In this document: in pieces, positions 1-47,343 of the stretch | How positions within the stretch are numbered: the first letter of the stretch is position 1 | Layout of the letters: each line of letters opens with the position of its first letter | DNA from: Candidatus Woesearchaeota archaeon | GTDB taxonomy: Archaea; Nanobdellota; Nanobdellia; SCGC-AAA011-G17; DATDVL01 | Reading direction: 5' to 3' | Assembly: GCA_964365915.1 (NCBI GenBank) | Contig: CAYIRJ010000001.1 | Span: 1 to 56,096, forward strand | Length of the DNA: 56,096 bases | Translations under genes and position numbers: made by a program | The notes under the pieces: model-generated | What the model was told of the DNA's origin: nothing | Database searches by the model: none | The model's input: the letters and a program-made list of their open reading frames with translations, nothing else

Positions 1-4
1 TGCT

Positions 5-586
5 TTGCATAAGTCCTTTAAGGAAAGACCTGTTCCTTTGATATTGCCTGCATTAGGTGTTTTTTTGCATAAGGGATTGGATTACTTACAAGGCACTTCA
101 CGGCACAGCAAGCGCGCAGTAGATCAGATCTGGCCTAATGTGCAAGGCATTCGCCAGGATGCGGATGAATCAAAGATGATGCCCTTATCAAAACGCGCAA
201 TCATCGGAGCAACAGGATTAAGCCAAGCTTTAGCTATGATTGCAGAATCAAGAGGGCACGCAATAGAAGAGAGTGCAAATCTTTTTTTGGGTGCGTTGCA
301 GTTTATTATCCCCTATTCAGGTGTGCTCTCCCTACCTTTCATCACCCAAGAAAAAGAAGGGGATGCGTATGCTGCATATGCTGCCCTAATGGAAAATATA
401 CAGCGGGAAATACAAGGGAAAAAGGAATCTTTGGAAACAGCTCTGGCCGTTGCAATTGCGGGAGAAAAGAAAGAAAAACTTTTAGATCAACTTTTAGATC
501 AGATAGCTTCGCCAACAGAAGGACGTTGGCTGCCCGTGCGGCGTTATATTGAAGGCTTGACAGATCAGAAGAGGTTTGCACAATGA
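5..586 (+). CDS. Hypothetical protein, 5'-partial (open to window edge); upstream partner of DGR target 1
   Basis: The reading frame is open to nt 2. Its TGA stop (584-586) overlaps the ATG of the next gene (ATGA). No domain recognised. The last residues (RFAQ) and the junction sequence aggtttgcaca are shared with the end of the 1403-3130 gene. Confidence 0.5.
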   Translation: MHKSFKERPVPLILPALGVFLHKGLDYLQGTSRHSKRAVDQIWPNVQGIRQDADESKMMPLSKRAIIGATGLSQALAMIAESRGHAIEESANLFLGALQFIIPYSGVLSLPFITQEKEGDAYAAYAALMENIQREIQGKKESLETALAVAIAGEKKEKLLDQLLDQIASPTEGRWLPVRRYIEGLTDQKRFAQ

Positions 587-1485
587 CTAAATCACGCTTA
601 ATTACCGGAAACAGGACTGCAGAGGATATTATTCGAGCCTATGAGCTGCGCGAGCAGGAACAAAGGAAGAAAGCAGAAACGTACGAAGAACAATATCATC
701 CAGAAAAACAAGAAGCAGAACCGGAACCTACAGTTCCTACATCTCCAGCATCACCTATCCAGGTGAACGATGCATCCTATATTATTCTACCAAGCCATAC
801 GCATAATACGTATTCTTATCCCGATCTGTTAGTAGCAAAGGCACGCTCCCATCAGAATCTGGAATGGAATCAAGCGCATCAAGCATTGCATCAGCAGCAA
901 GCATCCATGCTGACCATCAGACAGTTTGTAGACTTTTTAGCACATCTCAAGGCACGCAAAGTCTATGATGGCACAGGCAGCAAAGTTGCAAAAGCAGATA
1001 TCAAGCAACTCCTTGAAGATATTTTAGCTCAAAGAGCGCCCTGGAGAGCAGAATGGCTCGACGCTTTGTTCACAGAAGACAACGGGATTTGGAAAATAAA
1101 GTATGGTCATCAGGAGAAAAAAGGAAAGCTGGTAGCAAGATATCATGAGCCTTTGGAAGCCTGCATCCGGGAAGATTGCTATGTGAATCTGTTCAGCGCC
1201 AACAAGCAAGGCCTTCCCACCAGGAAAGTTAGCAAGCAGGAAATCTACTACTGGCAGCCCGGAAATGGTACTGTCGCGAGGTTCTTGGCGGATTCTGGTA
1301 GGGTCTGTATTGCGGCGGGGTTCGGCAGTACTCGGGTGCTGCTTTGGGGGTACGTGAAGTCCGCGAGCGCCGCTAGGCGCGAGCTCTGCAACGAAAATTT
1401 TTATGAAAAATCTCAAAAAAATCTTGGAACAGGAGAAAAACAGGATAGGGTTAGTCGGCACTCGCTTGCATCTTCAGCAGCCTGA
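583..1485 (+). CDS. DGR target protein paralog 1, with a frameshift inside its variable repeat
   Basis: The N-terminus (MTKSRLITGNRTAEDII) is paralogous to 3127-3903. Nt 865-1305 are identical to 3388-3828. A 4-nt gap after nt 1305, relative to VR2 and TR, shifts the frame. The ORF therefore skips the ancestral TAG (1374-1376) and runs to 1485, overlapping the next gene. Confidence 0.7.
   Translation: MTKSRLITGNRTAEDIIRAYELREQEQRKKAETYEEQYHPEKQEAEPEPTVPTSPASPIQVNDASYIILPSHTHNTYSYPDLLVAKARSHQNLEWNQAHQALHQQQASMLTIRQFVDFLAHLKARKVYDGTGSKVAKADIKQLLEDILAQRAPWRAEWLDALFTEDNGIWKIKYGHQEKKGKLVARYHEPLEACIREDCYVNLFSANKQGLPTRKVSKQEIYYWQPGNGTVARFLADSGRVCIAAGFGSTRVLLWGYVKSASAARRELCNENFYEKSQKNLGTGEKQDRVSRHSLASSAA
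1272..1353 (+). repeat. DGR variable repeat VR1
   Basis: Aligned by eye to TR 4161-4227 and 4246-4264. There are 14 substitutions, 12 of them at TR adenines. There is also a 4-nt deletion (TR aacc) and the 18-nt TR segment is absent. Confidence 0.8.
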
Positions 1486-3130
1486 AGAAGGAAGAGGCAT
1501 CAGCGAGCACATCACGCACGACTGGAGAGAGATCGTCATTGCCTTAAGAAAGGATATCGATCTTGCACCGGACAGCGCAACGCAGGAATATCTTGCAAAA
1601 GTAAAAAGTGCAGATCCCATACATACCGTAGCTTCTGACTTGTTAGTGCATGGGTGCGGGCATCGGGAGTTGCCTGCGTATTCAGGATTGGGCTGCCCAC
1701 ATTCTGTCATTCATCACGATCGAATTTTAGACGGCATAGCAGAAGCCTTGCAGAAGAAGAAAAAGAAAGGCCTTGAGCAGTATGTGGCAAATGCGTTCGA
1801 GGATGTGTTGGACAACGTCAATGCGCGCAGGCATACACGTCACGCCGGACAAGTTTTATTTTGGAACAACGAAGGCTTAGAAGCACAAGGAAAATTCCCT
1901 CCTTTCTATGAGGCATTTGTAAAAATCAACCTTGCCATGATGGGAAAACCAGAAGATGCAACGTTATTGCGGAGATTCTTTTCTAATGAATCAAAAGTGC
2001 AGCAGGCAGTAAAATCCTTCCTTAATTATATAAAAGAGAAGACGAATGTAGCGCATGTGGTGCGAGCCCATGAGCGACCAAGGCTCTTCAACCAGTTGTT
2101 TGAAAAAAAACACTGGCGAGATCTTGCGTATCAGTTTGCATGGGCAACTGCGGACTTGTTAGACCAGCAATCTACTCAAATGCGCCTCTGTTTTGGAAGC
2201 GATGAAAATCCTTTTGATAGGATGATGCGTCTTCCAGAATCTCAGGAAAAAATCGCGTATGGCAGATATCAGGCAGGCGAAGGTCCGAGCAAGCATACTG
2301 ATCAGCTATTACAGTTGGATGCCTTGTACCGAAAGATTTCCAAGGCAATTCCTGTAAAGACTTCGGAATATACTAAGGCCTCGGGAATGCCGTTGGTGTA
2401 TTTTGGAAGAAGAGCATTGCAGGAAGATGAAGATATTTCTCACGCACGTGTGAAAGGCATCGGCCTTGATGAATCAGGAAAACTAGGATTGCGGGTAGCG
2501 CGTCATGTACTGCAGCATCCTGCCACTTACAAAGTGCATCCAAGAAATTTTCCTAAATTGAAAGTGGCATTGTTAGACACCTCAGGAAGCATGGCACTCT
2601 CTCCTGAAAATGATGCGAATACAGGTTCAAAGCATTTCATTCCTTGGGGGGACAACAGCAAATATCATTTTGCATTAAAGGGGCTGTACGGCATTGATAA
2701 CTTCTTGGAGAAGCAGGGCGTTGCTCCCTATGTGGATTCAGAAGCAGTAACCTTCAGTAGCGAAACCACAAGAACAGGCAGAAGAAAGATGAGAAGCCTG
2801 GAAGAGCGCAAAGCCTTATTGAAAATACCCTCAGGGGGAACAACAATAAATATAAGAACATTTGAAGATGCGCTGTCCGATCCTTCATTTGTGGTTTCCA
2901 TCTCTGACGGGGACATTCTGAACTGGAAGGGAGTAAAGAAAAAATTTAAAGAAGTAATGCGGGGAAAAGCATATTGCCCCATTCACATTGGCAATGCAAA
3001 CACATTTACACAGGATGTAGAATCGTGGGGGATTCCTGTGCACTATGTCAAAGGCGATGACGATTTAAGTAGAATCATGATCGATACCGTTTCTCAGTAT
3101 TATCGGAAAGGAAGGTTTGCACAACCATGA
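1403..3130 (+). CDS. VWA (von Willebrand factor A) domain protein with an uncharacterised His/Cys-rich N-terminal region
   Basis: C-terminal MIDAS-like residues: LLDTSGSM (DxSxS), then SGGTTIN and SISDGD. The N-terminal region contains HGCGHRE and CPHSVIHHD. The stop overlaps the start of target 2 (ATGA). Confidence 0.8.
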   Translation: MKNLKKILEQEKNRIGLVGTRLHLQQPEEGRGISEHITHDWREIVIALRKDIDLAPDSATQEYLAKVKSADPIHTVASDLLVHGCGHRELPAYSGLGCPHSVIHHDRILDGIAEALQKKKKKGLEQYVANAFEDVLDNVNARRHTRHAGQVLFWNNEGLEAQGKFPPFYEAFVKINLAMMGKPEDATLLRRFFSNESKVQQAVKSFLNYIKEKTNVAHVVRAHERPRLFNQLFEKKHWRDLAYQFAWATADLLDQQSTQMRLCFGSDENPFDRMMRLPESQEKIAYGRYQAGEGPSKHTDQLLQLDALYRKISKAIPVKTSEYTKASGMPLVYFGRRALQEDEDISHARVKGIGLDESGKLGLRVARHVLQHPATYKVHPRNFPKLKVALLDTSGSMALSPENDANTGSKHFIPWGDNSKYHFALKGLYGIDNFLEKQGVAPYVDSEAVTFSSETTRTGRRKMRSLEERKALLKIPSGGTTINIRTFEDALSDPSFVVSISDGDILNWKGVKKKFKEVMRGKAYCPIHIGNANTFTQDVESWGIPVHYVKGDDDLSRIMIDTVSQYYRKGRFAQP

Positions 3131-3903
3131 AATCACGCCTCATCACCGGAAACAGGACTGCAGAGGATATCATCAAGGCATACGAGCTGCGCGAGCAGGA
3201 AAGAAAGAGCAAGAAAGCAGAAGTCCATGAAGAGCAATATCAGCCAGAAGAACCAGAAACTGCAATTCCAGCACCACAGCAATCTGCAGGTAAAGCAGCC
3301 TACATCATTCTGCCAGGTCATACCCATGATGCTTATTCCTATCCAGACCTATTAGTAGCAAAAGTACGTTCCCATCAAAGTAAAGATTGGAATCAAGCGC
3401 ATCAAGCATTGCATCAGCAGCAAGCATCCATGCTGACCATCAGACAGTTTGTAGACTTTTTAGCACATCTCAAGGCACGCAAAGTCTATGATGGCACAGG
3501 CAGCAAAGTTGCAAAAGCAGATATCAAGCAACTCCTTGAAGATATTTTAGCTCAAAGAGCGCCCTGGAGAGCAGAATGGCTCGACGCTTTGTTCACAGAA
3601 GACAACGGGATTTGGAAAATAAAGTATGGTCATCAGGAGAAAAAAGGAAAGCTGGTAGCAAGATATCATGAGCCTTTGGAAGCCTGCATCCGGGAAGATT
3701 GCTATGTGAATCTGTTCAGCGCCAACAAGCAAGGCCTTCCCACCAGGAAAGTTAGCAAGCAGGAAATCTACTACTGGCAGCCCGGAAATGGTACTGTCGC
3801 GAGGTTCTTGGCGGATTCTGGTAGGGTCGACCTGTATTGCTACGGGGATCGGCGGAGCTCGGTTGCTGCCTTGGGGGTACGTGAAGTCCGCGAGCGCCGC
3901 TAG
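3127..3903 (+). CDS. DGR target protein paralog 2 (intact); short C-type-lectin/FGE-like C-terminus carrying VR2
   Basis: The C-terminus reads GTVARFLADSGRVDLYCYGDRRSSVAALGVREV, and the corresponding TR frame reads SVARFRADSDRVNLNCNRDRQNS. No signal peptide or TM segment is visible. Confidence 0.85.
   Translation: MKSRLITGNRTAEDIIKAYELREQERKSKKAEVHEEQYQPEEPETAIPAPQQSAGKAAYIILPGHTHDAYSYPDLLVAKVRSHQSKDWNQAHQALHQQQASMLTIRQFVDFLAHLKARKVYDGTGSKVAKADIKQLLEDILAQRAPWRAEWLDALFTEDNGIWKIKYGHQEKKGKLVARYHEPLEACIREDCYVNLFSANKQGLPTRKVSKQEIYYWQPGNGTVARFLADSGRVDLYCYGDRRSSVAALGVREVRERR
3795..3880 (+). repeat. DGR variable repeat VR2
   Basis: There are 14 substitutions against the TR, 12 of them at TR adenines. 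It is followed by a GC-rich conserved flank shared with VR1 (an IMH-like region). Confidence 0.85.
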
Positions 3904-3940
3904 GCGCGAGCTCTGCAACGAAAAATTTTACGGGATATAT

Positions 3941-3949
3941 TTTTAAATA
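3941..3949 (+). promoter_or_regulatory. Candidate archaeal TATA box for the TR-RT transcript
   Basis: ttttaaata lies in the non-coding gap after target 2, about 210 nt upstream of the TR. Confidence 0.35.
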
Positions 3950-4160
3950 ACCAAGATTCTATTTTTTCGCCCTAGAGCTATCGGGAGCTTCCTCCCAAAG
4001 GAGAAGCGATGAAGGATACAAAGCTGGGGCTACACGTAAGCCTGCAAGTGCACGAAAGTGCCATGAAATACAATGACAACAATTAGTAGTAATGATCCAC
4101 CTTGGGAAAGTTGTGAATGAAGCTTGAAGTCATGGTGAAACTCAGCAGGCTTGCTACATC

Positions 4161-4264
4161 TGTCGCGAGGTTCAGGGCGGATTCTGATAGGGTCAACCTG
4201 AATTGCAACAGGGATCGGCAGAACTCGAAATCTTTTCAAGACGAGATTGCTGCTTTGGGAATAA
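4161..4264 (+). repeat. DGR template repeat (TR)
   Basis: Non-coding copy of the target 3' end. The frame corresponding to the VR frame has four AAY codons (AAC, AAT, AAC, AAC). It contains an extra 18 nt (4228-4245) absent from both VRs. It ends 18 nt before the RT ATG. Confidence 0.85.
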
Positions 4265-4282
4265 CACCAGCGCTCTAGGGAT

Positions 4283-5389
4283 ATGAAAACGTACCCAGAT
4301 ATTTATGCACAGCTCTGTTCTTTAGAAAATTTGGAAAGTGCATTCCAGAAAGCAAAGCTTGGCAAATCGAAAAAGTTGTATGTTCTAGAATTTGAAGCCA
4401 ATCTGAAAGAAAATTTAGAACAGTTGCAAAAAGAATTACAATTGCAGACCTACATGCCGCAGCCACTGAAAAGGTTTATCATCAGGGATCCAAAGACGAG
4501 AGTCATCCATGCATCTGCTTTCCTCGACAGGGTTGTCCACCATGCGATTACCAATGTGCTGGGTCCTATCTTTGAAAAGAAATTTGTTTATGATTCCTAT
4601 GCAAGTAGGGTAAATAAAGGCACGCATAAAGCAATACAGCGATTCGCGCAATTCATGAGAAAAGTCTCGAGAAACGGTGCGCAAGTAACGCAGGCAGCCA
4701 CAAACAATCACATTCAGGGATATGTGTTGAAGGCAGATATTCAGCATTATTTTGATACTGTAGATCATGAAATATTGATAGCTATTCTCAGAAAAATTGT
4801 TCCGGATGAGAAACTCATCAACCTAGTAAAGAAGATCTTGAATAATCTGGACATGAAAATTTCTGGCAAAGGAATGCCTTTGGGGAATTACACTTCACAA
4901 TTTTTTGCTAACGTGTACTTGAATGAACTAGACTATTTTGTTAAGCATGTCCTTCAATGCAAATATTACATCCGTTACGTGGATGACTTTGTGATCTTGC
5001 ACTCAAATAAGGGAATATTAGAAAACTATGGCGTACGTATTAAAGAATTTTTAAGAGCAATAAAGTTGGAATTGCATCCGCAAAAGTCCAAGATTCTCCC
5101 TTTGAAAGATGGGATTACATTTCTTGGATACAAAATATTCTATTGTTACAGGCTACTAAGAAGAAGGAACCGTTTCCGCTTTGAAAGAAGGTTCAAGGAC
5201 TATCTGCAGCAATGTAAGGATGGAGAATTAACCTATTTCGAAATTGTAACAAAGCTACAAGGATGGTTTGGATATGCGAAATGGGCAAATACGTACAGAT
5301 ACAGAAAATTGATTTTCAAAAGATTAAATCAAGAAGTATTAGCTCAACGCATACCGCAAGATAGCAGCCACTCCTCCCATGTCGCGTAG
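4283..5389 (+). CDS. DGR-type reverse transcriptase
   Basis: RT motifs seen: RVIHASAFLDRVVHHAI, YASRVNKGTHKAI, LKADIQHYFDTVDH, MPLGNYTSQFFANVYLNELD (the DGR hallmark I/LGxxxSQ) and YIRYVDDFV (YxDD). No group II maturase or endonuclease tail. Confidence 0.9.
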   Translation: MKTYPDIYAQLCSLENLESAFQKAKLGKSKKLYVLEFEANLKENLEQLQKELQLQTYMPQPLKRFIIRDPKTRVIHASAFLDRVVHHAITNVLGPIFEKKFVYDSYASRVNKGTHKAIQRFAQFMRKVSRNGAQVTQAATNNHIQGYVLKADIQHYFDTVDHEILIAILRKIVPDEKLINLVKKILNNLDMKISGKGMPLGNYTSQFFANVYLNELDYFVKHVLQCKYYIRYVDDFVILHSNKGILENYGVRIKEFLRAIKLELHPQKSKILPLKDGITFLGYKIFYCYRLLRRRNRFRFERRFKDYLQQCKDGELTYFEIVTKLQGWFGYAKWANTYRYRKLIFKRLNQEVLAQRIPQDSSHSSHVA

Positions 5390-6427
5390 CTGCTGCCCTT
5401 CCCTGCTTTGTGTGCTGATAATTTGCACTTTCGTGCCATGACCTTCAGCTTCATCCATTAATCCCTCTAACACGAATTCATCTAAGTCTTCGCTTAGCAG
5501 CAAAAGTTCTACTGCCCCCAGGTTCAATGCTTCATGGACTTCTTCTTTGCCATAAGAAGCCTTTTTCGGATCTTTTGCTAACGTCATCAAAAATCGTTCC
5601 ACTGCTTTTTTTTCTTCCACAATGTTCTCCTGTGCTAAAATATCTTTGCTTGCATCAACAAGATCGTGCAGTCCATGCTCATCCGTGTAGGTCAAATCAA
5701 ATATCCCTTTGACTTTGCGCTTCAATTCGTTATTCAATTGGTCAATAAAAGTGTTTTTGGTGTGTCCAGGCCCGCCGATCAAGACACCTTTCAAATCCTT
5801 GATCACAGGTAAAAATTGTTTGTCGCAGAATTCAGCAACCCTTTTATAAAATTCCAATGCCATGCCATCAATGAGCCTTTCCAGGCGTTGCGAGCTCTGT
5901 CCTCCCGCTTTAAACTTTCCCGGTACGCCAGAAGTAAGAGTATGCAGTACTTGAATATAGCTTCCGCGCATTAAGCCAACCGTCGCTTCCTTCCTATCCA
6001 TGACAATCAGCGCATAGAATTCCTTTTCCTCAAGCATCTGTTCTAAAATGTCAGTCTTGAAGGTTTGATCGCAGCGGTAAATGCGTTGCCCTATAGGAAC
6101 AGGGGGTTCAATGCTGAACACTTGAATGTCAATCTTATTTTCCTTGTCAGAAACGTTGCCAGCAAACACTGCTAATCCATTGGGCGGAGTTTTCTTGAAC
6201 AAGCGCAAATGATTGATCACTCTTCCTAAACTATCCACAACATTATTTCTTGTGCGTGCATCTTTAATATTCGTTGCAGTGCCTGCTTCCTGCTCCAAAT
6301 GCTGGATAATCTTGATAATATCGTACCCTGCAGGCACATATACCGAAACCAGTTCCGTATGCCTTCCGCGCATGTGTTGCAACGGCCTGATAAATTTCTT
6401 CAGTTTCAATTTCTCTTTGAGTTCCAT
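5339..6427 (-). CDS. prf1: Peptide chain release factor aRF1
   Basis: GGQ motif (KAGGQSSQRLERL). The NIKS-loop region reads TATNIKDARTRNNV. Length and domain order are typical of aRF1. Confidence 0.95.
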   Translation of the reverse strand: MELKEKLKLKKFIRPLQHMRGRHTELVSVYVPAGYDIIKIIQHLEQEAGTATNIKDARTRNNVVDSLGRVINHLRLFKKTPPNGLAVFAGNVSDKENKIDIQVFSIEPPVPIGQRIYRCDQTFKTDILEQMLEEKEFYALIVMDRKEATVGLMRGSYIQVLHTLTSGVPGKFKAGGQSSQRLERLIDGMALEFYKRVAEFCDKQFLPVIKDLKGVLIGGPGHTKNTFIDQLNNELKRKVKGIFDLTYTDEHGLHDLVDASKDILAQENIVEEKKAVERFLMTLAKDPKKASYGKEEVHEALNLGAVELLLLSEDLDEFVLEGLMDEAEGHGTKVQIISTQSREGQQLRDMGGVAAILRYALS

Positions 6428-10528: not shown

Positions 10529-10957
10529 TCATTCCACCGTGAAATAGTCTTGCACATAGTTGCCAGAACTGTAGTCAAATACATGCGCAACATACAATCC
10601 TTCTTCCCACGATGTAGGGATCTCGTAAATGATCGATGCGCGCCCATAGCAGCGCTGTTCCTTGCAGAATGCTGGGGTCTCTCCCACTTTTATCCCACGT
10701 GTGAAAAACTCCACCTTATTCATGGTGCCTGCTTCTCCTGGATGAATGGTAATGCGCAAATCCTCTCCGTGGCTGAGCACGACAGGCTGCACATCAAGGC
10801 GAGAAGAAGTATCTTTCACTGCGCTGCCAGTAAAGCCAGTCATATTGAAGGCCACCGCACCCGTAAGCACAATAAAAATGGTAAGCAATGCAACTTGCCG
10901 ATTAGTAAGATCCATAGGTTTTTCAGGGATGAAGAAGTTTAAAAGGCTTTTTATCAA
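10529..10957 (-). CDS. Hypothetical membrane-anchored or secreted protein
   Basis: One N-terminal TM helix (ALLTIFIVLTGAVAF) followed by a beta-rich domain. The antisense ORF is Cys/His/Trp-rich and looks spurious. Confidence 0.55.
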   Translation of the reverse strand: MIKSLLNFFIPEKPMDLTNRQVALLTIFIVLTGAVAFNMTGFTGSAVKDTSSRLDVQPVVLSHGEDLRITIHPGEAGTMNKVEFFTRGIKVGETPAFCKEQRCYGRASIIYEIPTSWEEGLYVAHVFDYSSGNYVQDYFTVE

Positions 10958-11420: not shown

Positions 11421-12815
11421 ATGAAGAAGCAAATCGTTCTCTATGCTCTTGCGTTTTTAGTAGCGCTCTCGATATTTTCTGCATTATCCACAAAAGTATT
11501 ATTTACCGACGCTCCCCAGTACATCAACACTGCAAAAGAGTTTGCAGGCCTGGCTATTTCCAAAGTCAGGAATTTTTCTGCATGGCTCTATCCGTTATTC
11601 CTAGGGCAGTTCCTCAAGGTCTTTCCCAGTTTGTTCACCTTGCAATTTCTGAATGTTCTTTGGCTGGTGTTGGATGCTATATTGTTATACCATATGACAA
11701 AGAAGAAAGAAGTGTTTCTCCTGTTTGCATTCTCTCCTTTAACGTGGATCATGGCTCCCTGGATCAATCCTGTTGTTCCTGCTTCGTTTTTCCTGCTGTT
11801 GGCGTATCATTTGCTGAAGCAGTATGAAGCAAAGAGAAAGCTCATGTATTTCATCAGTTCAGGCCTGTCGTTAGGTCTTGTGTCTGCGCTGTGGTGGCCG
11901 GGAACGTATCTTTGTATGTTATTTATGCTTGCCTTTTTTTACCGAGAGAAAGTGCTTATGGCTTTAGGATATCTTATTCCTGTGATAGCAACAGCAAGTA
12001 TACGTTTCTTTATTGATGCATACTATTTCGGATTTCCCTTTTTTTCCACAATTCGCGGTTTAGGAAGCAATGCGCTGTATTTTTTGGACAAGGCAGAAGT
12101 CATTCCTGGAAACCCGCCTTCGTTCTTGCTTTTTCTGGTAATGTTGGCCTTGGTCATTTCACCATTCCTGTTCAAATGGTATCAAGTAGACAAGAAAAAG
12201 CACCGTCACGAGCTTCTGTTTTTGCTGCTGGCAACGCTGTTATTTTTCTTGAATTATGAAATCCGTTATTTCATTACCATCGCGCCGCTGGTAATATTGT
12301 TATTAAGTACAGTATTGAAGAAAAATGAGTATGTAATCCATGGAGCGTTGTCCATGATGCTGATTGTGGTGTTTACTGCTTCTTATTTCGGCGTGACCGA
12401 GGAATATCTCATCAAACAAGACATCAGTGAAATCGCGCGCAAGTACCAGGGGACTACGTTCATTGTCGGCACTGAAGGCGTGTCTGAAGAGCAGGCCATG
12501 GATATTTCCACATTATATTGGGGAAGAGAAATTCCGCGCTTGATAACATATCGCGATTGGAAGATGGATGTGCAGAAAGAAAAAGTGTACAAGGAATACA
12601 GCATAGAGTCTCATGCGCGCATCAACGAAGTAAGGAAAATGAAACTTTCCATTACCTATCTGCAGTCTGACAACGTTGATGATGCGAGTTTGAAGGACTT
12701 GTTGATCCTGGGAGATGTTCCTCCCCCAGAGGGATTTGAATTAGTAAAGAAATATGCCATAATAATGCAATATCGAAAGATAAGTGAGATTTATTTAAAT
12801 AATCAAAATCTTTAA
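11421..12815 (+). CDS. Polytopic membrane protein, GT-C-like glycosyltransferase candidate
   Basis: About 10 TM segments followed by a soluble C-terminal domain. The architecture resembles ArnT/PMT-family enzymes. No diagnostic motif was verified. Confidence 0.55.
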   Translation: MKKQIVLYALAFLVALSIFSALSTKVLFTDAPQYINTAKEFAGLAISKVRNFSAWLYPLFLGQFLKVFPSLFTLQFLNVLWLVLDAILLYHMTKKKEVFLLFAFSPLTWIMAPWINPVVPASFFLLLAYHLLKQYEAKRKLMYFISSGLSLGLVSALWWPGTYLCMLFMLAFFYREKVLMALGYLIPVIATASIRFFIDAYYFGFPFFSTIRGLGSNALYFLDKAEVIPGNPPSFLLFLVMLALVISPFLFKWYQVDKKKHRHELLFLLLATLLFFLNYEIRYFITIAPLVILLLSTVLKKNEYVIHGALSMMLIVVFTASYFGVTEEYLIKQDISEIARKYQGTTFIVGTEGVSEEQAMDISTLYWGREIPRLITYRDWKMDVQKEKVYKEYSIESHARINEVRKMKLSITYLQSDNVDDASLKDLLILGDVPPPEGFELVKKYAIIMQYRKISEIYLNNQNL

Positions 12816-18415: not shown

Positions 18416-21055
18416 ATGGAAGACGATCTGGAAAAGCGTAAGGAAAAAGTTGTTGCCTTTCTCAAGCAACATAAGCAATGGATAGTCTATTTGCTGTTAC
18501 TAGGAATTATCTGGCTAGGCGCAGACATTCGTTCTGCAAATATCCCTTTGCTCAAGGACCAGACGACAGGTGAGACAATCACTGCAGAACTGGATTCTAC
18601 CATTTTTCTCCGCTATGCTGAATACATTGCTGAGCACGGAAAGCTTCCTGCCGTGGATGCCATGCGCTTTGTTCCTGTCGGTGCAGATCTCAGTCATATT
18701 GGAACGTTTACGTCTTATTTTGTTGCGTACCTCTGGAAGTTTCTACATCTTTTCAATCCAGAGATAACTGTTGCCTACGTAGATATTATCTATCCTGTCA
18801 TTGCCATGGCAGTAATGACAATATTTTTGTTTCTGCTAGTGCGCAGAATCTTCAACGAAAAAGTAGCGTTACTCGCTTGCCTGTTCATTACGTTGATCCC
18901 TACATTCATTTTCAGGAGCACTGCAGGAAGTTCGGACCACGATATGCTGGGGATGATGCTTTTTGTCATGACTTTGTATTACTATGTCGTTGCGTATCAG
19001 GCAAGGTCGTTAAAGAAGACGTTGGTCTTTGGAGCCATCTCTGCAATCTTGGTATTTGTAGGAAGACATACTGCAGGCAATGCGAACTTCGCGCTGTTCA
19101 TTGTGGGTGCATTCACCTTAGTGAGTATCTTTCTCGACCGCTTTGAGAAAAAGGATTTTTACCTGTATGCACTCTGGCTAGGTCTGAGCATGCTGCTTCT
19201 CCAGCTTTCAGGAAAATTCGGCGGAGTAATGGCATTTGCAACGTCAGTTACTACTGGCATTGCTTTTGTTGCATTGCTCTTTGCTATTGTGGATTTCGTG
19301 GTGTTCAAGAAAGACCTATTCAAAATCCGGCAGCGCGTGGAAGCCAAAATGCCGCTCTGGATAGCCACGCTTCTAATCTCTCTTGTAATGGGGTCAATCA
19401 TCATTGCAGTTATGTTTGGTCCAGAGTACTTTGTCGTGAAGGGAAAGCACGTGCTCCAGTATGTGTTCAAGGCGTATGGTGAGACACGCTGGACACTGAC
19501 GGTTGCTGAAAATCGCAAGCCTTTTGTCGTGGATTGGTTCTCACAAATGGGTAAGCTCTTTGTGTATTTCTTCTTACTTGGCGGGGTTTGGCTGTTCTAT
19601 GAAACGGTCAAGAAGCTCAAGGGTGCAAAGATGCTGACAGGAATTTTTGCTCTCTTCTTGTTTGGCTATACCTTTTCAAGATATTCCCCAGATTCTGTCT
19701 TCAATGGTACGTCAACACTCTCGCATCTTACGTTCTATGGATCGTTGATAGGATTTTTTGTTCTTATCTTTTATCTTTATATCAGGATATTCTACAGAGA
19801 TCGTGAACAGTATAGGTATATTGCAGAAAATGTGAATTTAACATATGCATTCCTTTTCATCTGGTATATCATTATGGTCATGGCTGCAACCTCTGCAATC
19901 CGTTTACTGTTTGAATTTTCTGTGATTACCTCCATCTTAGCTGCATTTTTTATCATCGCAGCGCTGCAGTTTTTCTGGGAGCGCAAGCATAAGGTGTTAA
20001 GGTACGCAGGCATTCTTGTGATAGTATTAATTCTCGCAAGCCCATTCTCCCTGGGATTCATGTCTAAGGGAATGTTGCTGACGCACTATCAATCCAGTGA
20101 TTACCAGGCTGCAAACACGGGTCCTTCCTATGGCCAGCAGTGGCAGCTTGCAGGAAAATGGATAAGGGAAAACACGCCGAACGATGCAGTCTTTATCCAC
20201 TGGTGGGATTATGGCTACTGGGTGCAATCGGGATTCAAGCGCGCTACCGTTACTGATGGGGGAAATTTTTTCATCTATTGGAATTATCTGGTGGGAAGGC
20301 ATCTGTTGACAGGAGATGACGTTACCAAAGCATTCGAATTGATGAAGGCACATAAGGTCACGCATTTCCTAGTGGTTTCAGATGAGATTGGAAAATACGG
20401 TGCATACTCCAGCATCGGGTCTGATCTCAACTATGACCGCTTTGCATCCATTGGTATCTTTGCAAATAATCAGCAGCGAACACAAGAGACGCGCAACCAG
20501 ACCATCTTTGTTTACGAAGGAGGGGTACAGTTGTTCGAAACCTATACCTACGATGGTGTCGTGTTTCCTTCTTCCACTCCTGTCATTGGATTTTTGGTCT
20601 ATGCAAGCAACGTCAGCACCACATCCTCCTCTATTACGTTGACTTTCGAGAAGGTAGAGGCTATACTACATAAAGATGGCAAGCAGTACAACATTCCTCT
20701 TTCTTGTATTTTCTCTGATAAAGCATATGAACTGAACATACCCAATGCCATGCCTGCATGTCTAAGAATCATTCCCCAATTCAATGGGGGGAATCAATAT
20801 GTGCCATTGGGAAACGCGATATTTGTTCCTCCGAAGATAAAAAAGAATCTGTTTGGCAAGTTGTATTTGTTAGACGAAACAGTTCCTGGGTTTCAACTGA
20901 TTTACAATGACGCGTACCAAGCCCCTCTCGCAGTGTATCAGGGAAGATTAATCGGACCGCACCGCATCTGGGAAATTGAGTATCCTGAAAACATTGCAAT
21001 TAAAGAAGAATATTTGGCACTGGATTATCCTGATCCTCGGCTGAAAGCGCCGTAA
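18416..21055 (+). CDS. aglB: Oligosaccharyltransferase AglB/STT3
   Basis: WWDYGYW motif, about 13 N-terminal TM segments and a C-terminal soluble domain. Confidence 0.9.
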   Translation: MEDDLEKRKEKVVAFLKQHKQWIVYLLLLGIIWLGADIRSANIPLLKDQTTGETITAELDSTIFLRYAEYIAEHGKLPAVDAMRFVPVGADLSHIGTFTSYFVAYLWKFLHLFNPEITVAYVDIIYPVIAMAVMTIFLFLLVRRIFNEKVALLACLFITLIPTFIFRSTAGSSDHDMLGMMLFVMTLYYYVVAYQARSLKKTLVFGAISAILVFVGRHTAGNANFALFIVGAFTLVSIFLDRFEKKDFYLYALWLGLSMLLLQLSGKFGGVMAFATSVTTGIAFVALLFAIVDFVVFKKDLFKIRQRVEAKMPLWIATLLISLVMGSIIIAVMFGPEYFVVKGKHVLQYVFKAYGETRWTLTVAENRKPFVVDWFSQMGKLFVYFFLLGGVWLFYETVKKLKGAKMLTGIFALFLFGYTFSRYSPDSVFNGTSTLSHLTFYGSLIGFFVLIFYLYIRIFYRDREQYRYIAENVNLTYAFLFIWYIIMVMAATSAIRLLFEFSVITSILAAFFIIAALQFFWERKHKVLRYAGILVIVLILASPFSLGFMSKGMLLTHYQSSDYQAANTGPSYGQQWQLAGKWIRENTPNDAVFIHWWDYGYWVQSGFKRATVTDGGNFFIYWNYLVGRHLLTGDDVTKAFELMKAHKVTHFLVVSDEIGKYGAYSSIGSDLNYDRFASIGIFANNQQRTQETRNQTIFVYEGGVQLFETYTYDGVVFPSSTPVIGFLVYASNVSTTSSSITLTFEKVEAILHKDGKQYNIPLSCIFSDKAYELNIPNAMPACLRIIPQFNGGNQYVPLGNAIFVPPKIKKNLFGKLYLLDETVPGFQLIYNDAYQAPLAVYQGRLIGPHRIWEIEYPENIAIKEEYLALDYPDPRLKAP

Positions 21056-26830: not shown

Positions 26831-27148
26831 ATGATCAGTGTATCAAGAAAAATTCAAAAAACTGGGGACCAGTATCAACTGGTAATCCCATTAAAAGGGG
26901 AAAATTATCGGATTTCTGTGGGTTATATCAGATTTCTGGATGCATATGAACTTGAAGTGAAGGACAGAAACTTTGAAGTGGTTCAAGAGTTTAAAGGAGA
27001 TCTTTTTAAGGAAACTCTCAGAGAATTATATCAATCTCTTAATGCAAAAATCGGGCAAAGAATAGCTGATGAAAATGAAGCAGCACGAAAAGAAAGACTT
27101 TGTCAATTGCGCGATGCCTGCAGTCTAGAACAGAAAGTTCAAGATTAA
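26831..27148 (+). CDS. Hypothetical small protein
   Basis: ORF only. The ATG at 26831 is preferred over the upstream TTG. Confidence 0.35.
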   Translation: MISVSRKIQKTGDQYQLVIPLKGENYRISVGYIRFLDAYELEVKDRNFEVVQEFKGDLFKETLRELYQSLNAKIGQRIADENEAARKERLCQLRDACSLEQKVQD

Positions 27149-27183
27149 CAACCCTTAAAAACCGTTTTTCTTCTTTTTTTCCT

Positions 27184-28752
27184 ATGCGATCGCGCTGGGT
27201 GTGGATACTCGTAGGAATTGCTCTGGTGTTGCGTTTGTTGCTTCTCACGTTTCATGAGACTGTGGAAATTGATGGTGTCTATTACATCACCATGGGCAAG
27301 AATTTCATCCAAGGAAATGGCTTGCGCGACATCGAAGGCAATATCAACACCGTCTTCATGCCTCTATATCCTATTTTTACTGGAGTAGTGAGCCTGATAG
27401 TGTCCAATGGGGAGCTTGCTGCTCGTTTGATTTCCATCATTTTCGGAGCATTGCTCATTCTTCCAGTCTATGGTCTTGCGCGTCGCATCTATGATCAAAA
27501 AGTAGCGCTGATTGCCGCAGCCATCACAGCAGTGTATCCCGCACTCACCTACATTTCAAGTATTACTTATGCAGATTCGCTGTACCTCTTCTTGATTACC
27601 AGCGCCATGTATACTGGATATCGTGCCTTGCAGAGTGGTGTGCTCAAGGAGTATATTGCCACTGCAGTGCTCTACAGCCTTGCGTATTTGACAAGACCCG
27701 AAGGATGGCTCTATATTCTCCTGACTGCCCTATATGTGCTCTGGCATAAAAGAGAACAATGGAAGAAAGCAATCAAGCCTGCAGCAACAGTACTAATCGT
27801 CGCATGTCTTGTGGTGCTTCCATATCTTGCATTTGTCTACACGCAGTCAGGAGATCTCTCATTGAGCAGCAAGGGATATGTTATTTACAAGTTCAGAGCC
27901 TACCAACCTTTCTCTGAAGAGTATGAAAAGAATATCTTTGGTTTGAACGAAGCGAAAGATGACATTCTCTTGAACCCGTACAAGGTGAGAGGAAGTTTTG
28001 TCAAGGAAGTAATTGCGCAGAGTGATGTATTCCTGCTGCGATACATCACGAATCTTGTTCGCGAGATCTATATAGTAATCCCGAAAGTCTTTCCCTTCAT
28101 CATTTTTTCACTATTTGCATTTGCTTTGCGAAGCTGGAACAAGGACGAATGGAAAAAAGAATCATATTTGCTGATGCTGGTGGCATATCCTATATTATTT
28201 TATCCTCTCTTCTGGGTGGAAGCACGGTACCTGCTCCCTATTCTTCCCATTGTGATACTCTGGGCGGGAAAAGGTATCGTGCAAATTGCTGAACGATGGA
28301 AGAGTATCAAGATTTCTTGGATGATAACAGGAATTATCCTTGTTTCCTTGCTGGGAAACATCTTTGCAAATCATCTGATTGACAGCAGATTTGAAAAAAT
28401 AAATCCTCCTGTGGAACACAAGCAGGCAGGGCTTTGGGTGAAGGAACAGTACATGCATCCGCGCATCATGGAGCGCAAGCCCTGGGTAAGTTTTTATGGT
28501 GGCGGCACCTTTGTGAATTTTCCCTATGTGAACAGTTATGATGAATTGATCATCTACGCATGCAACAACAAAGTAGATCTAATGGTGATTGATGAAAGGT
28601 ACACAGCACCTCTGCGTCCTCAAGTAGCAGCGCTCCTGGGATATCCCAACCCCACACTCTATCCTGAAGTGCACAAAGTCTATGAAGAACAGGCATATCC
28701 TCCGAAGAAGAGCATTATGATCTATCAGATAAATTGCGATAAGAACCTATAA
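27184..28752 (+). CDS. GT-C membrane glycosyltransferase (ArnT/PMT-like)
   Basis: Polytopic protein with an acidic first loop (HETVEIDGVYY) and a C-terminal soluble domain. ATG at 27184. Confidence 0.7.
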   Translation: MRSRWVWILVGIALVLRLLLLTFHETVEIDGVYYITMGKNFIQGNGLRDIEGNINTVFMPLYPIFTGVVSLIVSNGELAARLISIIFGALLILPVYGLARRIYDQKVALIAAAITAVYPALTYISSITYADSLYLFLITSAMYTGYRALQSGVLKEYIATAVLYSLAYLTRPEGWLYILLTALYVLWHKREQWKKAIKPAATVLIVACLVVLPYLAFVYTQSGDLSLSSKGYVIYKFRAYQPFSEEYEKNIFGLNEAKDDILLNPYKVRGSFVKEVIAQSDVFLLRYITNLVREIYIVIPKVFPFIIFSLFAFALRSWNKDEWKKESYLLMLVAYPILFYPLFWVEARYLLPILPIVILWAGKGIVQIAERWKSIKISWMITGIILVSLLGNIFANHLIDSRFEKINPPVEHKQAGLWVKEQYMHPRIMERKPWVSFYGGGTFVNFPYVNSYDELIIYACNNKVDLMVIDERYTAPLRPQVAALLGYPNPTLYPEVHKVYEEQAYPPKKSIMIYQINCDKNL

Positions 28753-28759
28753 AAAGAGT

Positions 28760-30361
28760 ATGGCAAGAGATGAGCTAATGGAAGGAGTGGAACAACGCCT
28801 GCGACTGTTGAATGTTCTCACCTCAAAAAAAGTTTGGATCATTGCCGCAATTCTTGTTTTTGCCTTTGTTCTTCGTTTTATTGTGGCAATCGTGCATGAG
28901 CCTCCTGCGCAATGGTGGGATTCAGGAGACCATCTTACCGGAGCAAAGGAAATATGGAACATCGCCGAGTACGATACGTATGAACTAAGCCCGCGACGCC
29001 CTTTCTTTCTGAGCATACTCTGGGGTTTTTTTCTCAAGCTGGGAGGTGATGACACAATATTATTGTTTGTATCTGTAGTGTTCTCCTTGGCAATCGTCTG
29101 GCTGACGTATCTTCTTGCCAAGAAGCTCTTTGATCAAAAAGTAGCATGGATTGCTGCTTTGCTTTCCGCGGTATTCTGGCAATATGTATTTCACACCACG
29201 CGCCTGCTCACTGATCTTCCTTCGCTTGCATTTTGGCTTGCTGCTGCATATTTCTTCTGGCAGGGCTATGTCGAGGAGCGCTCAAAAAAGGATTTGTTGC
29301 TTGCAGGTCTGTTCTTTGGTTTGGCATGGTTCACGCGCGCAGCAAGTTTGATTTACATCATTCCGTTGTTTGCTGTGGTAATAGTAAAGGAGCGAGCAAG
29401 ATTCTTCCTCAACAAGCGGCTCTGGATGATAGTACTCATTGCTATCGTTGCAATCTCTCCTTTTCTCATCTGGCTGTTCACTTCATTTGATAATCCGGTG
29501 CAGAAATTTACAGGGTTAGGAGGGGGAGAACAGCGCTTTGCCGGCAAGGGACAACCGAAGTATCTCTGGTTGAACTTGGAGCATATTGCAAACGATGTCA
29601 TGTCTCCAATGATCGCAGGAAAATTCTTCAGTCCGCGATTTTTAGGATTCTTTATCATGCTCATTGTTTTTTTCCTGTATGGAAGTCTGTTCTTGGGATT
29701 CGACATGTTATGGAAAACAAAGGATAAGCAGTTGCTCAAGCGTTGGTTTTTGCTGGTTTGGCTGCTGACTCCCTATGTATTCTATAGCCTGACTGCTGCA
29801 GGCGTTGAGGATCGTTATTTGTTTGGGATGTTTCCTGTCCTGTTCATGGCGCTGGGAGAAGGAATCGTAAAGATAGGATCCTTCATAAAAAACCAAAGCA
29901 AAATCCTTTCCTATGCGATAGTTGTCGCAATACTACTTGTTCTCATGTATGGCCATACTGTCGCTGGCTATAACGCTGCGCTCAATGCAAAAAGCGGATT
30001 TGCAGAGGTTGCCTTTGCAGGACAGTGGATCAAAATGAATTCCAATCCAGATGATGCAGTCATTACCGCTTCCAAATACCAGAACATGTATTACAGTGAG
30101 AGAAACACGTATCCCTTTATTGCAAAAGCAGAAGACAGGGAAAATGCATCTTCATTTACTACACGCTTAGAAGAAATTCATCCAAAGTTTGTTATCATAT
30201 CTGTTTACGAGCCTGCCTTCACTCCACCCTGGACCTACAATTTTCCGCAGGAACATCCGGAATTGTTGCAGCCGGTGCAGGCGTATTATGACCAGAACAA
30301 AAATCCAAGATTAGTGGTGTATGGGTATTTGAAGCATCCTGCGTTCATGCAACAACAGTAA
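28760..30361 (+). CDS. GT-C membrane glycosyltransferase (ArnT/PMT-like)
   Basis: Same architecture as the preceding gene. Confidence 0.7.
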   Translation: MARDELMEGVEQRLRLLNVLTSKKVWIIAAILVFAFVLRFIVAIVHEPPAQWWDSGDHLTGAKEIWNIAEYDTYELSPRRPFFLSILWGFFLKLGGDDTILLFVSVVFSLAIVWLTYLLAKKLFDQKVAWIAALLSAVFWQYVFHTTRLLTDLPSLAFWLAAAYFFWQGYVEERSKKDLLLAGLFFGLAWFTRAASLIYIIPLFAVVIVKERARFFLNKRLWMIVLIAIVAISPFLIWLFTSFDNPVQKFTGLGGGEQRFAGKGQPKYLWLNLEHIANDVMSPMIAGKFFSPRFLGFFIMLIVFFLYGSLFLGFDMLWKTKDKQLLKRWFLLVWLLTPYVFYSLTAAGVEDRYLFGMFPVLFMALGEGIVKIGSFIKNQSKILSYAIVVAILLVLMYGHTVAGYNAALNAKSGFAEVAFAGQWIKMNSNPDDAVITASKYQNMYYSERNTYPFIAKAEDRENASSFTTRLEEIHPKFVIISVYEPAFTPPWTYNFPQEHPELLQPVQAYYDQNKNPRLVVYGYLKHPAFMQQQ

Positions 30362-45369: not shown

Positions 45370-47343
45370 CTAATAAATCCTGAACAGCAGCAATTTGTTG
45401 TATCCATTGTCACTTGCATATATAAGGTTAAAATCGGGATGCCCTTTTTCCAATTGTCGGACAACATCAGCATTCAAGGGACATAATGTCGCTGCTTCTT
45501 TCAATTGTTGATAGGCAGCTCGTCCTTCACAATCTTGGTATTCATTCCAGGGATGGTCACTCGGATAGAAATCATAGAAGTTGGGTCGGGGAGCAATGAA
45601 AAGCGCATAGGAAATATGTTGCGATCCCATATACTCATAAAGATTTTCCGGCGTCTGCTCATCATATGGTTTCCAGGCGGTGTAATCAAAGGTATGTTCA
45701 AGTTGATATTTTCCGCGGTAAAAGTCATACGGATGCGGCGATGTTGTCGCTAAAATCGTTTCTTCTTTTGGGATGTATTCTTGGATGTAAGCAAACATCT
45801 CGTTCATGGGAACATAGCGCTGCTCGTAATGATTGTAAGCTAAAGCTAAAGTGAAGGTCAGGGTGAAAGCAACCAAGGCAACTAAAATGATTTTTCCAAT
45901 CCTTTTTCTGAATTGCAAAAGCAGATGCAAGGGAAAAATGCTCAACCCAATCACTGCCGGAATGTACGGAACCATGATGCGCACCGGTTTATACATCAGG
46001 ATGATATAACTCATATGGATAAGATACCACCCCGCAAACCACAAGAGAAGATAAAGAAGCAAAGGCCGTTCTTGTGCATTGCGTTGGAAAAGATAAAAGA
46101 GCGCAAAAATAAGTCCAAGAAGGAACAAGAAGAAAAGGATAAAGTTTGTTTGCCGAGGAATCAATCCAAGATACACACTCCATGCTTTGAAGGAAAGCCA
46201 TTGGCTCCAGATGCTCAAATCCCCCGTATGCCGGACATCGAAAAAGATGTTAATCACCAGTAAAGGTCCAATGCCTACCAGTGCAAATAATGCCCCATAC
46301 ACATAGGCGATGCGTTCTTTGAAGATCTTGACAATATTCCATTCTCCCTGTAAAAAGTATTCAAGAAGCAGATAGGCAGCAAAAATAGGCAGCAAAAACA
46401 ACACAGGTTGCTTGTACATAAATCCTGCTGCTATAAAGAAGAAGCTGGTGAGCATGTCAGGCAAAGAAGAATGCAGCCTGCTCCTTACAAAATAGTGGGA
46501 TGCTGCAGCAAGGAAGAATAATTGCCCTGCTTCTAAATAGCTTAAGGATGCAAAATAAAAAATAAGGGGTGAAAATAAAAAGAGAACGCTTGCAGCAAAT
46601 GCAACCTGCTTATGCAGGCGTAATGCCAGCAGCTGGTAAAAGTAGAACGCAGCCCCTACAGTAAAGAAGGGCTGCAAGACGCGCATGCCCAGTTCGCTGT
46701 ATCCGGAAAAGGAAAATTCCAGACCATAGAGCAGCGCACTGACAGGGCCGTAATATGTTAACCAGTTCAGATGGTCAAGCACGGGCGTTCCAAATTTAAG
46801 CGCATGATAGAGAACAGCGGCTTTATTCACCAAAAAGAAATACCCCAGCAACAGAACAGGAAGAAGATATAATGATTTTTTAGAAAAAGATGAAGAGAAC
46901 CTTACAATATTTTTCCGCGTTAACCAGAGAATACCCAAAAGAATAATTGCAGCAATGCGGAAAACCCAAAAGAAGTCTATGCCCAAATGGTGTTGGAAAA
47001 AGATAACTGCCGGTTCCATCAGCCAAATGCCCCGGGAAATATGGAAGGATTCATCAGACAAGGGGGGTAAATCTTGCACTAAAAAAGGAAGTTGTACAAT
47101 GAAATAAACAATGCTCAGCCAAAGCAGTAATTTCCAATGTTCTTTAAATAAGGAAAATTTTTTCTCAGGAAAGGTTAAAGTCCAGCGATATAAAAAATAT
47201 CCCGCAACACTGACAACTGCTAATAATCCAACAAAAAGAATGATGCGTGTAGAAAATTCAGGAAATGCAAGCCAAATGGGATAAATCAGCAAGCCATACA
47301 CCCACAGCAAAAAGAAGGGCCAAAAAAAGCGCGAAGGTTTCAT
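45370..47343 (-). CDS. Large polytopic membrane protein, GT-C-like candidate
   Basis: More than 12 TM segments plus a C-terminal soluble domain. Confidence 0.55.
   Translation of the reverse strand: MKPSRFFWPFFLLWVYGLLIYPIWLAFPEFSTRIILFVGLLAVVSVAGYFLYRWTLTFPEKKFSLFKEHWKLLLWLSIVYFIVQLPFLVQDLPPLSDESFHISRGIWLMEPAVIFFQHHLGIDFFWVFRIAAIILLGILWLTRKNIVRFSSSFSKKSLYLLPVLLLGYFFLVNKAAVLYHALKFGTPVLDHLNWLTYYGPVSALLYGLEFSFSGYSELGMRVLQPFFTVGAAFYFYQLLALRLHKQVAFAASVLFLFSPLIFYFASLSYLEAGQLFFLAAASHYFVRSRLHSSLPDMLTSFFFIAAGFMYKQPVLFLLPIFAAYLLLEYFLQGEWNIVKIFKERIAYVYGALFALVGIGPLLVINIFFDVRHTGDLSIWSQWLSFKAWSVYLGLIPRQTNFILFFLFLLGLIFALFYLFQRNAQERPLLLYLLLWFAGWYLIHMSYIILMYKPVRIMVPYIPAVIGLSIFPLHLLLQFRKRIGKIILVALVAFTLTFTLALAYNHYEQRYVPMNEMFAYIQEYIPKEETILATTSPHPYDFYRGKYQLEHTFDYTAWKPYDEQTPENLYEYMGSQHISYALFIAPRPNFYDFYPSDHPWNEYQDCEGRAAYQQLKEAATLCPLNADVVRQLEKGHPDFNLIYASDNGYNKLLLFRIY

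Follow-up and report, generated by a model that had tools for sequence, protein, structure and literature searches.

The first 5400 nucleotides (1-5400) of a 56,096-nucleotide stretch of DNA from a Candidatus Woesearchaeota archaeon (GenBank assembly GCA_964365915.1, contig CAYIRJ010000001.1), which was analysed at its full length and is called here the window, hold five co-directional genes; in order, all on the plus strand, they encode the C-terminal half of a MoxR-type ATPase, target 1 of a diversity-generating retroelement (DGR), a 575-residue protein with a von Willebrand factor type A (VWA) domain and its metal ion-dependent adhesion site (MIDAS), target 2, and the DGR reverse transcriptase (RT); a template repeat (TR) and two variable repeats (VR1 and VR2) complete the element (Table 1). 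A cassette composed of MoxR, VWA protein and targets is present in about 80 related DPANN genomes, and all of the small proteins of one cassette start with the same, cassette-specific sequence of about 30 residues, the leader. These findings of adjacency and of a shared leader, solid in themselves, and the functional readings to which they lend themselves are the focus of the present analysis, which followed an earlier reading of the same DNA from its letters and open reading frames (ORFs), referred to below as the sequence-only reading.

Table 1. Features of the MoxR-VWA-target locus, in window coordinates
Feature	Position	Strand	Basis or remark
C-terminal 194 residues of MoxR-type (AAA_5) ATPase	2..586	+	Homology to the 431-residue protein of related locus L001
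DGR target 1 (leader, linker, predicted C-type-lectin-like body)	583..1376	+	Listed ORF 583-1485 is a frameshifted read-through
Target 1 leader, MTKSRLITGNRTAEDIIRAYELREQEQR	583..666	+	Codon comparison with target 2 leader
VR1, with 4-nt deletion	1271..1376	+	Alignment to VR2 and TR
575-residue putative adaptor: N-terminal helical HExxH-type domain, beta-rich linker, C-terminal VWA/MIDAS	1403..3130	+	
N-terminal alpha-helical domain, residues ~58-315	1574..2347	+	Secondary structure of AlphaFold2 model
HGCGH, residues 83-87, putative degenerate zincin HExxH	1649..1663	+	Alignment column counts
Predicted VWA domain, residues ~386-568	2558..3106	+	Invariant columns, Foldseek; D392/S394/S396 at nt 2576-2590
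DGR target 2, 258 residues	3127..3903	+	AlphaFold2 model, Foldseek
Target 2 leader, MKSRLITGNRTAEDIIKAYELREQERK	3127..3207	+	Leader comparisons
VR2	3794..3900	+	8/9 TR mismatches at TR adenines
TR	about 4160..4265	+	Alignment with VR1 and VR2
DGR RT, 368 residues	4283..5389	+	Pfam RVT_1, PADLOC RT model

Genes and domains of the locus

The first ORF (2-586) is cut by the window edge, its AAA+ core lying upstream of window position 1; its product is 56% identical to residues 225-407 of the 431-residue protein of L001, which matches Pfam AAA_5 (36.5 bits against a cut-off of 22) and carries the P-loop GGTGEGKT, and because of this identity it can be taken as the C-terminal half of a MoxR-type ATPase. 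The WxhapG/PsWRxa motifs are missing at the N-terminal end of the L001 protein, whose P-loop is not of the GxxxTAKS form, and the bpMoxR profile scores 20.7 bits on it, under the cut-off of 27; MoxR also gives a weak match to a phage CobS-like PHROG. The stop codon of the MoxR gene (TGA, 584-586) overlaps the start codon of target 1 within the tetranucleotide ATGA (583-586); both the identity of this ORF and its coupling to target 1 had been overlooked in the sequence-only reading.

The ORF that follows target 1 is a real protein-coding gene. A hypothetical protein with the same sequence as the 575-residue product occurs in a Nanoarchaeota metagenome-assembled genome (MAG); a word-indexed search recovered 127 full-length homologues, and a profile search of a library of 1.84 billion proteins gathered 454 clusters at 50% identity, every named source being a DPANN archaeon and none of the homologues being annotated. 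This hitherto unannotated set of 454 clusters, in which a helical HExxH domain is combined with a VWA domain, defines a new protein family. The motifs from which a VWA domain had already been called, DTSGSM (392-397), GGT (478-480) and SDGD (501-504), are present, as are all of the MIDAS residues (D392, S394, S396, T480 and D502); across 68 homologues D392, S394, T480 and D502 are invariant and S396 is conserved in at least 90%. The AlphaFold2 model built on these 68 homologues is confident (predicted local distance difference test, pLDDT, 89.5; predicted TM-score, pTM, 0.84), and Foldseek matches it in the PDB to the VWA domains of CMG2, CLCA1, ITIH1, NorD and MDN1-MIDAS with probability 1.0 and E ~4e-4, so that structure prediction, which had been proposed as a check, bears the call out. 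The 575-residue protein itself has no Pfam VWA or VWA_2 match above the gathering score, while the distant family members P0304, P0310 and P0316 exceed the Pfam VWA (PF00092) threshold; since Pfam is silent on the protein itself, its VWA membership rests on fold and on transitive homology, and the C-terminal domain is modelled as a VWA fold, Rossmann-like and alpha/beta, with an intact MIDAS. Searches of Pfam, NCBIfam, PHROGs and PADLOC gave nothing meaningful for this protein or for target 2, a Pfam scan of all 68 family members returned noise only, and PDB sequence and profile searches with the 575-residue protein found no credible match. A match to the receptor-binding domain of a coronavirus spike (E 2e-4 over 44 residues) was judged spurious, the aligned region being helical in the AlphaFold2 model.

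The N-terminal domain (residues ~58-315) is all-helical in the model. Both of the motifs, HGCGHRE and CPHSVIHHD, for which the N-terminal region had been described as His/Cys-rich, are present, and the description missed the HExxH nature of the first. In the family this motif has the form HExGHRE: H83 and H87 are each kept in 68 of the 68 homologues, and position 84 is Glu in 47 and Gly in 21, the latter group including the window protein and that of L001. Because both His residues are kept and Glu84 is replaced by Gly, the domain is read as a zincin-like module without catalytic base in the clade of the window; the window protein would thus carry a module that has lost its catalytic Glu, and in the HGCGH clade the domain probably only binds peptide, as a pseudo-peptidase. 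Peptidase domains on vWA components are commonly inactive (Kaur et al., PMC7159879). The N-domain gave no Pfam, NCBIfam, PDB-sequence, PHROG or PADLOC match, and full-length Foldseek searches of the PDB are dominated by the VWA domain; whole-protein structural matches in BFVD, all weak, are to phage proteins named 'VWFA domain', CobT-like, 'Metallopeptidase domain protein' and 'Metallopeptidase'.

The element to which the two targets belong is a DGR, with an RT (Pfam RVT_1, E 2e-24; PADLOC RT model, E 5e-57), TR/VR pairs with adenine-specific mismatches and VRs at the 3' ends of the targets; TR has nine mismatches to VR1, and nine to VR2, eight of them in each case at TR adenines. Targets 1 and 2 are 87% identical over residues 2-234, and VR1, compared with VR2 and TR, has lost 4 nt after position 1305; read in the other frame, 1308-1376 gives YCGGVRQYSGAALGVREVRERR and then a stop (1374-1376), as at the normal end of a VR. 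Since the deletion shifts the 300-residue ORF 583-1485, the apparent overlap of target 1 with the VWA start is an artefact; the sequence-only reading had missed the frameshift, and the gene is either a pseudogene or a mis-assembly in a hypervariable repeat. The locus was detected in groundwater metagenomes, whose contigs on it (~5x, fragmentary and broken at repeats) show one A>G variant in VR2.

For target 2, the AlphaFold2 model (pLDDT 88.1) begins with a disordered N-terminus and a helix (residues 12-30), followed by a Glu/Pro-rich, disordered linker (31-55) and then by a compact domain (56-258); the top Foldseek matches in the PDB are all C-type lectin-like domains, TaqVP among them, with E-values of 0.013 or worse, and residues 56-258 are accordingly modelled as a C-type-lectin-like domain on weak E-values. 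Neither VR contains an 18-nt stretch of TR (4228-4245, AAATCTTTTCAAGACGAG) that codes for NSKSFQDE-like residues; the TR of L001 (about 10860-10880) encodes an equivalent 'NSKSSRDE', and this conserved TR-only insert is possibly an RNA element for the RT. In three groundwater runs the depth of metagenome contigs over 4168-4298 is 5-10x that of the flanks, and loose contig ends at TR run into other VR-like sequences; a TR core common to many related DGRs of the groundwater community would seem to be involved. No small plus-strand ORF of at least 60 residues is listed between target 2 and the RT, and no profile search for Avd was made.

Conservation of the cassette and of the leader

One genome per GTDB species was scanned, yielding 92 relatives, from which 79 loci were fetched; their ORFs were called and then classed with profile searches run in iterations, with sequences of the window and of L001 as seeds. 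In 39 of the 41 loci with at least 4.5 kb upstream, a MoxR gene lies upstream of the VWA gene on the same strand, and the two loci without MoxR in reach hold arrays of at least 8 small genes, too long for the fetched flank. The recurrent order is MoxR, targets, VWA, targets, the small genes (230-330 residues, from 1 to more than 8 per locus) occupying the interval from MoxR to the VWA gene as well as the DNA that follows the latter. The conservation of VWA-target adjacency among related archaea, on which the sequence-only reading had made its proposal depend, is clearly borne out by these loci, and the survey that it had called for, of VWA or ATPase genes beside DGR targets, finds both MoxR and VWA recurring. 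So does the stop/start coupling that it had noticed: in the window the VWA stop codon (TGA, 3128-3130) overlaps the start codon of target 2 (ATG, 3127-3129) within ATGA (3127-3130), and in the related loci the distance from the VWA gene to the next one is exactly -4 nt in 30/56 and at most 30 nt in 48/56, while MoxR overlaps the gene downstream of it in 27/45.

The RT is found inside the fetched locus in 36 of 82 loci (16 of the 27 that are fully covered), on either strand and outside the operon. A survey of TR-VR pairs, with the search for TR limited to the RT-proximal spacer, identified A-biased targets in 30 of the 36 loci with an RT, and in 20 loci such targets lie both upstream and downstream of the VWA gene; 755 of 806 TR-VR mismatches, in 63 targets, fall at TR adenines. 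In the reverse direction, three of the four target-2 homologues on long contigs lie in the same type of cassette. No other gene family is conserved around the cassette in the 82 loci; integrases, MNT-type nucleotidyltransferases, Fic, AbiEii, MazE, ParE-like and Patatin proteins occur sporadically nearby (flanks of L001, L003, L086 and L087), which hints that the cassettes sit in variable or mobile genome regions. In L052, a single-cell contig of SCGC AAA011-G17, a target lies directly upstream of a 575-residue member of the VWA family; since this contig carries both, the target-VWA association was already contained in the founding archaeal DGR data set.

The leader, which is not mentioned in the sequence-only reading, has the form M(T)KSRLITGNRTAEDII(R/K)AYELREQE in the window, MKIQIPDNFMGKPIKGSIEKVL in L026 and MTEKYNTLEFDYDRIRQIKLKMNKE in L003, and is laid out as a short extended segment and an acidic amphipathic helix, after which comes the disordered linker. 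Proteins of the same locus whose bodies are less than 35% identical share a median of 22 identical residues in their first 45, against a median of 5 (95th percentile 13) for leaders of different loci. The leader-bearing bodies belong to at least 10 sequence-unrelated families; one of these is of AvpA type (PDB 5IOO, E 3.5e-9), and in L012 and L014 the VWA gene has AvpA homologues among the genes that flank it. In L003, where no RT lies within 8 kb and the lectin-like paralogues differ at their C-termini by DGR-like N/Y/D/H/L/F swaps, two WD40 beta-propeller proteins (5213-6229 and 11675-12733) have their leader in common with the cassette's lectin-like proteins. The leader codons of targets 1 and 2 differ by 6 synonymous and 3 non-synonymous changes, those of the adjacent linker by 4 synonymous and 13 non-synonymous ones plus indels; judged from such comparisons, the leader is cassette-specific and under purifying selection. 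A single MAG (C24_metabat.bin.162) contains two paralogous cassettes, L038 and L051, with VWA proteins 83% identical and MoxR proteins also 83% identical, whose leaders are diverged between the cassettes and identical inside each, which suggests orthogonal addressing. In an exploratory partial Mantel analysis, leader divergence tracks that of the VWA protein when MoxR is controlled for (r ~0.3, p ~0.002), and the converse does not hold; such co-variation could be produced by rate differences alone.

As to cellular location, the sequence-only reading had reported neither signal peptide nor transmembrane (TM) helix in the targets; none was detected in the targets or in the VWA protein by hydropathy, SignalP not being part of the check, the maximum of the 19-residue Kyte-Doolittle mean reaching 0.49 in target 2 and 0.63 in the VWA protein. 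Few of the 188 flanking proteins of the related loci reach TM-like hydropathy, and the exceptions that were checked (such as L003 10608 and one in L014) proved to be mis-extended starts or housekeeping neighbours; among the genes around the cassette, none for a membrane or secretion component is conserved across the related loci. Because a MoxR ATPase must be cytoplasmic and export signals are absent, the products of the cassette are predicted to be cytoplasmic.

The remainder of the window is ordinary archaeal chromosome, with genes for aRF1, a class-I aminoacyl-tRNA synthetase, STT3 and PMT_2 glycosyltransferases. STT3/AglB-like and several PMT_2 glycosyltransferase genes are clustered at 18416-21055, 27100-30361 and 45370-47343, which suggests a capacity for protein glycosylation in a small genome; a tblastn match of the VWA protein at 46072-46335, on the strand opposite to a PMT_2 glycosyltransferase gene, is due to chance. 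A radical-SAM protein (33775-35736, minus strand) is split by an intein, with Pfam Intein_splicing and Hint_2 matches.

A proposed MoxR/VWA machine for diversified clients, and other readings

In known MoxR-VWA pairs (CbbQO, NorQD, RavA-ViaA, midasin), the MIDAS of the VWA protein captures an acidic residue of the client and the AAA+ ring remodels that client. It is because such pairs bind an acidic client residue via the MIDAS that we infer the leader to be a docking peptide. In the scheme that we propose, the 575-residue protein would be one subunit, the VWA adaptor, of a cytoplasmic machine of MoxR-AAA+/VWA type with the DGR targets of the same operon as its clients; the leader would act as a docking tag held by the VWA protein, either via an acidic leader residue that completes the MIDAS metal site or via the peptidase-like HExxH groove, and the MoxR hexamer would then remodel, assemble or release the client. 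In orthologues keeping HExxH the leader may also be cleaved. By analogy, the hypervariable lectin-fold proteins might serve as intracellular ligand sensors feeding an ATP-gated response. The division of labour between an ATPase and a substrate adaptor has its precedent in MoxR-VWA pairs (PMC7159879, PMC10907252). Taken as a whole, that is, a VWA adaptor and MoxR machine acting on DGR-diversified clients together with a sensing role for the latter, this proposal seems to us evenly poised between being right and being wrong.

Several points weigh against it. No recognisable effector (nuclease, TIR, caspase or pore) is conserved near the cassette in the related loci, PADLOC is silent on the VWA protein, on MoxR and on the target, and a protease step is not universal, because the catalytic Glu of HExxH is absent in the window protein. 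Non-classical export of the targets may still be compatible with a check based on hydropathy; gene conversion could account in part for the identity of the leaders in one cassette, the repeated DNA of the targets taking in about 12 nt upstream of each target start; and in L085 (6001-6699) an orphan protein of the target-2 type, which may be a remote or decayed target, has no leader and no MoxR, VWA or RT neighbours. The sensing or conflict role put forward in the sequence-only reading gains a published precedent in the bacterial vWA-MoxR/DGR systems, and is left without a recognisable effector, the only candidate being a peptidase-like domain devoid of its Glu.

A different use of the same machine is conceivable for DPANN episymbionts, which attach to hosts: MoxR and the VWA protein would serve for the maturation, assembly or export of surface adhesins, the leader being a non-Sec targeting or assembly signal that is clipped in the HExxH-bearing orthologues. 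AvpA-like proteins have indeed been viewed as enhancing symbiotic contacts (PMC5006420), MoxR-vWA assembly chaperones are known, including that of an archaeal virus tail system (PMC7159879), and both the propeptide-like layout of leader, linker and domain and the HExxH retained in the family consensus would suit such a function; against it stand the lack, by hydropathy, of any Sec/Tat-like hydrophobic segment in about 180 flanking proteins or in the VWA protein, the lack of a conserved membrane or secretion component, and the inactivation of the protease motif in 21 of 68 homologues, that of the window included. We regard export of adhesins as unlikely but far from negligible. Much less probable, in our opinion, is that the retroelement itself uses MoxR and the VWA protein, in place of Avd, as accessory factors for the handling of TR RNA and cDNA or for retrohoming, the target proteins not being acted upon. 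It is true that no Avd gene was identified in the cassettes (again with no Avd profile search behind this statement), that the RT is a frequent neighbour (36/82 loci) and that TR has a conserved 18-nt insert; yet of the 27 cassettes with full coverage, 11 keep MoxR, VWA and the flanking proteins without having an RT within 8 kb, the RT stands outside the operon, on either strand, in contrast to the targets, whose translation is coupled to that of MoxR and VWA, and a conserved leader would have no role in such a model. A role in retrohoming is made unlikely precisely by the many cassettes without RT in cis and by the leader carried by WD40 proteins that are not of DGR type.

The adjacency might also reflect no functional link at all, a housekeeping MoxR-VWA operon being simply a favoured landing site for duplicating target genes, which do duplicate together with their ~12 nt of upstream sequence and whose number (1 to more than 8) and type vary widely from locus to locus. 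The probability that we would assign to mere landing is very small, and the smallest among the readings considered here: flanking leader-bearing genes accompany the MoxR-VWA pair in 39 of 41 informative loci, the VWA gene directly follows MoxR only in L072 and L081, with L072 still having flanking genes downstream, the stop/start overlaps are conserved, and the leaders are cassette-specific and under purifying selection.

The proposal of a cytoplasmic MoxR/VWA machine can be extended to an 'addressed client' system of DPANN archaea, in which MoxR and the HExxH-VWA adaptor would recognise a cassette-specific leader that can be placed on any binding scaffold; we put this forward tentatively, with more doubt than belief. 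If it is true, the scaffolds so addressed would include several unrelated DGR lectin-fold families as well as WD40 propellers, orthogonal leaders would keep the paralogous cassettes of one genome separate, and the cell would have at its disposal a set of hypervariable intracellular receptors gated by ATP, the archaeal equivalent of the DGR antigen sensors proposed for bacteria.

Comparison with known systems

The closest parallel is provided by vWA-MoxR systems of cyanobacteria and gammaproteobacteria in which FGS/CLec domains are DGR-diversified (Kaur, Burroughs, Iyer & Aravind, eLife 2020, PMC7159879; Dore et al., PNAS 2024, PMC10907252); in these ternary conflict systems, the diversified domains have been proposed as invader sensors (PMC7159879, PMC10907252). 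The archaeal cassette resembles them in that MoxR, a MIDAS-intact VWA protein, a DGR RT with its TR, and hypervariable lectin-fold domains occur in one neighbourhood, in the predicted cytoplasmic location of the components, in the peptidase-like domain without catalytic residues on the vWA component and, in some cassettes (L003), in the presence of beta-propeller proteins. There are also differences: the hosts are DPANN archaea instead of multicellular bacteria; none of VMAP, iSTAND and FtsH is conserved as a third component across the 82 loci; no propeller is fused to the archaeal vWA protein, WD40 domains being found only as separate leader-bearing clients in L003; the lectin domain resides on separate leader-bearing proteins of 230-330 residues, not fused C-terminally to vWA; the archaeal vWA protein has a novel N-terminal HExxH helical domain, no effector domains having been found; and the L001 MoxR lacks the signature motifs, with bpMoxR below threshold. 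The archaeal cassette may therefore be considered a functional analogue of the vWA-MoxR/DGR conflict systems that falls outside all four described subtypes.

With the classical pairs CbbQ-CbbO, NorQ-NorD, RavA-ViaA, CoxD-CoxE and CobS-CobT, the cassette shares an AAA_5 ATPase gene placed beside that of an adaptor with a helical N-terminus and a C-terminal VWA/MIDAS domain, and the 575-residue protein has structural matches to NorD and to CobT-like phage proteins; it differs from them in its clients, multiple hypervariable paralogues as opposed to one metabolic enzyme, in the HExxH motif and in having no detectable sequence similarity to them. A similar architecture, with an HExxH helical domain and then a VWA domain, is presumably also that of the COG3864/DUF2201-type 'metallopeptidase + VWA-like' proteins, which we take to be encoded beside MoxR genes; in contrast to this type, none of the 68 + 10 VWA family members scanned has a Pfam DUF2201_N or DUF2201 match, and the BFVD matches named as metallopeptidases have structural probabilities of 0.72-0.82 with low TM-scores.

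The nanoarchaeal DGR variable proteins (AvpA, PDB 5IOO; PMC4372165, PMC5006420) come from the same organisms and from the same DGR type as the targets described here. In the parts of the two reports that enter this comparison, nanoarchaeal DGR targets are described as orphan genes and the function of AvpA as unknown (Paul et al. 2015, PMC4372165; Handa et al. 2016, PMC5006420), and neither the MoxR/VWA neighbours nor the shared leader are mentioned in those same parts, the main survey of DGRs in DPANN and in the candidate phyla radiation (CPR; Paul et al. 2017, Nat Microbiol) lying outside the comparison. A recent survey likewise contains no DGR/vWA-MoxR association in ultrasmall archaea (PMC10907252), and it is to these that the DGR/vWA-MoxR link, hitherto a matter of multicellular bacteria, is extended by the present system, a MoxR/HExxH-VWA cassette of archaea whose DGR targets stand alone and would be addressed through their leader. 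Cellular DGR targets, especially the abundant DPANN and nanoarchaeal ones, have been treated as orphans, possibly for host attachment; seen as operon partners of a MoxR/MIDAS-adaptor pair, without export signals and with a leader of docking type, they become the subject of a biochemically testable hypothesis.

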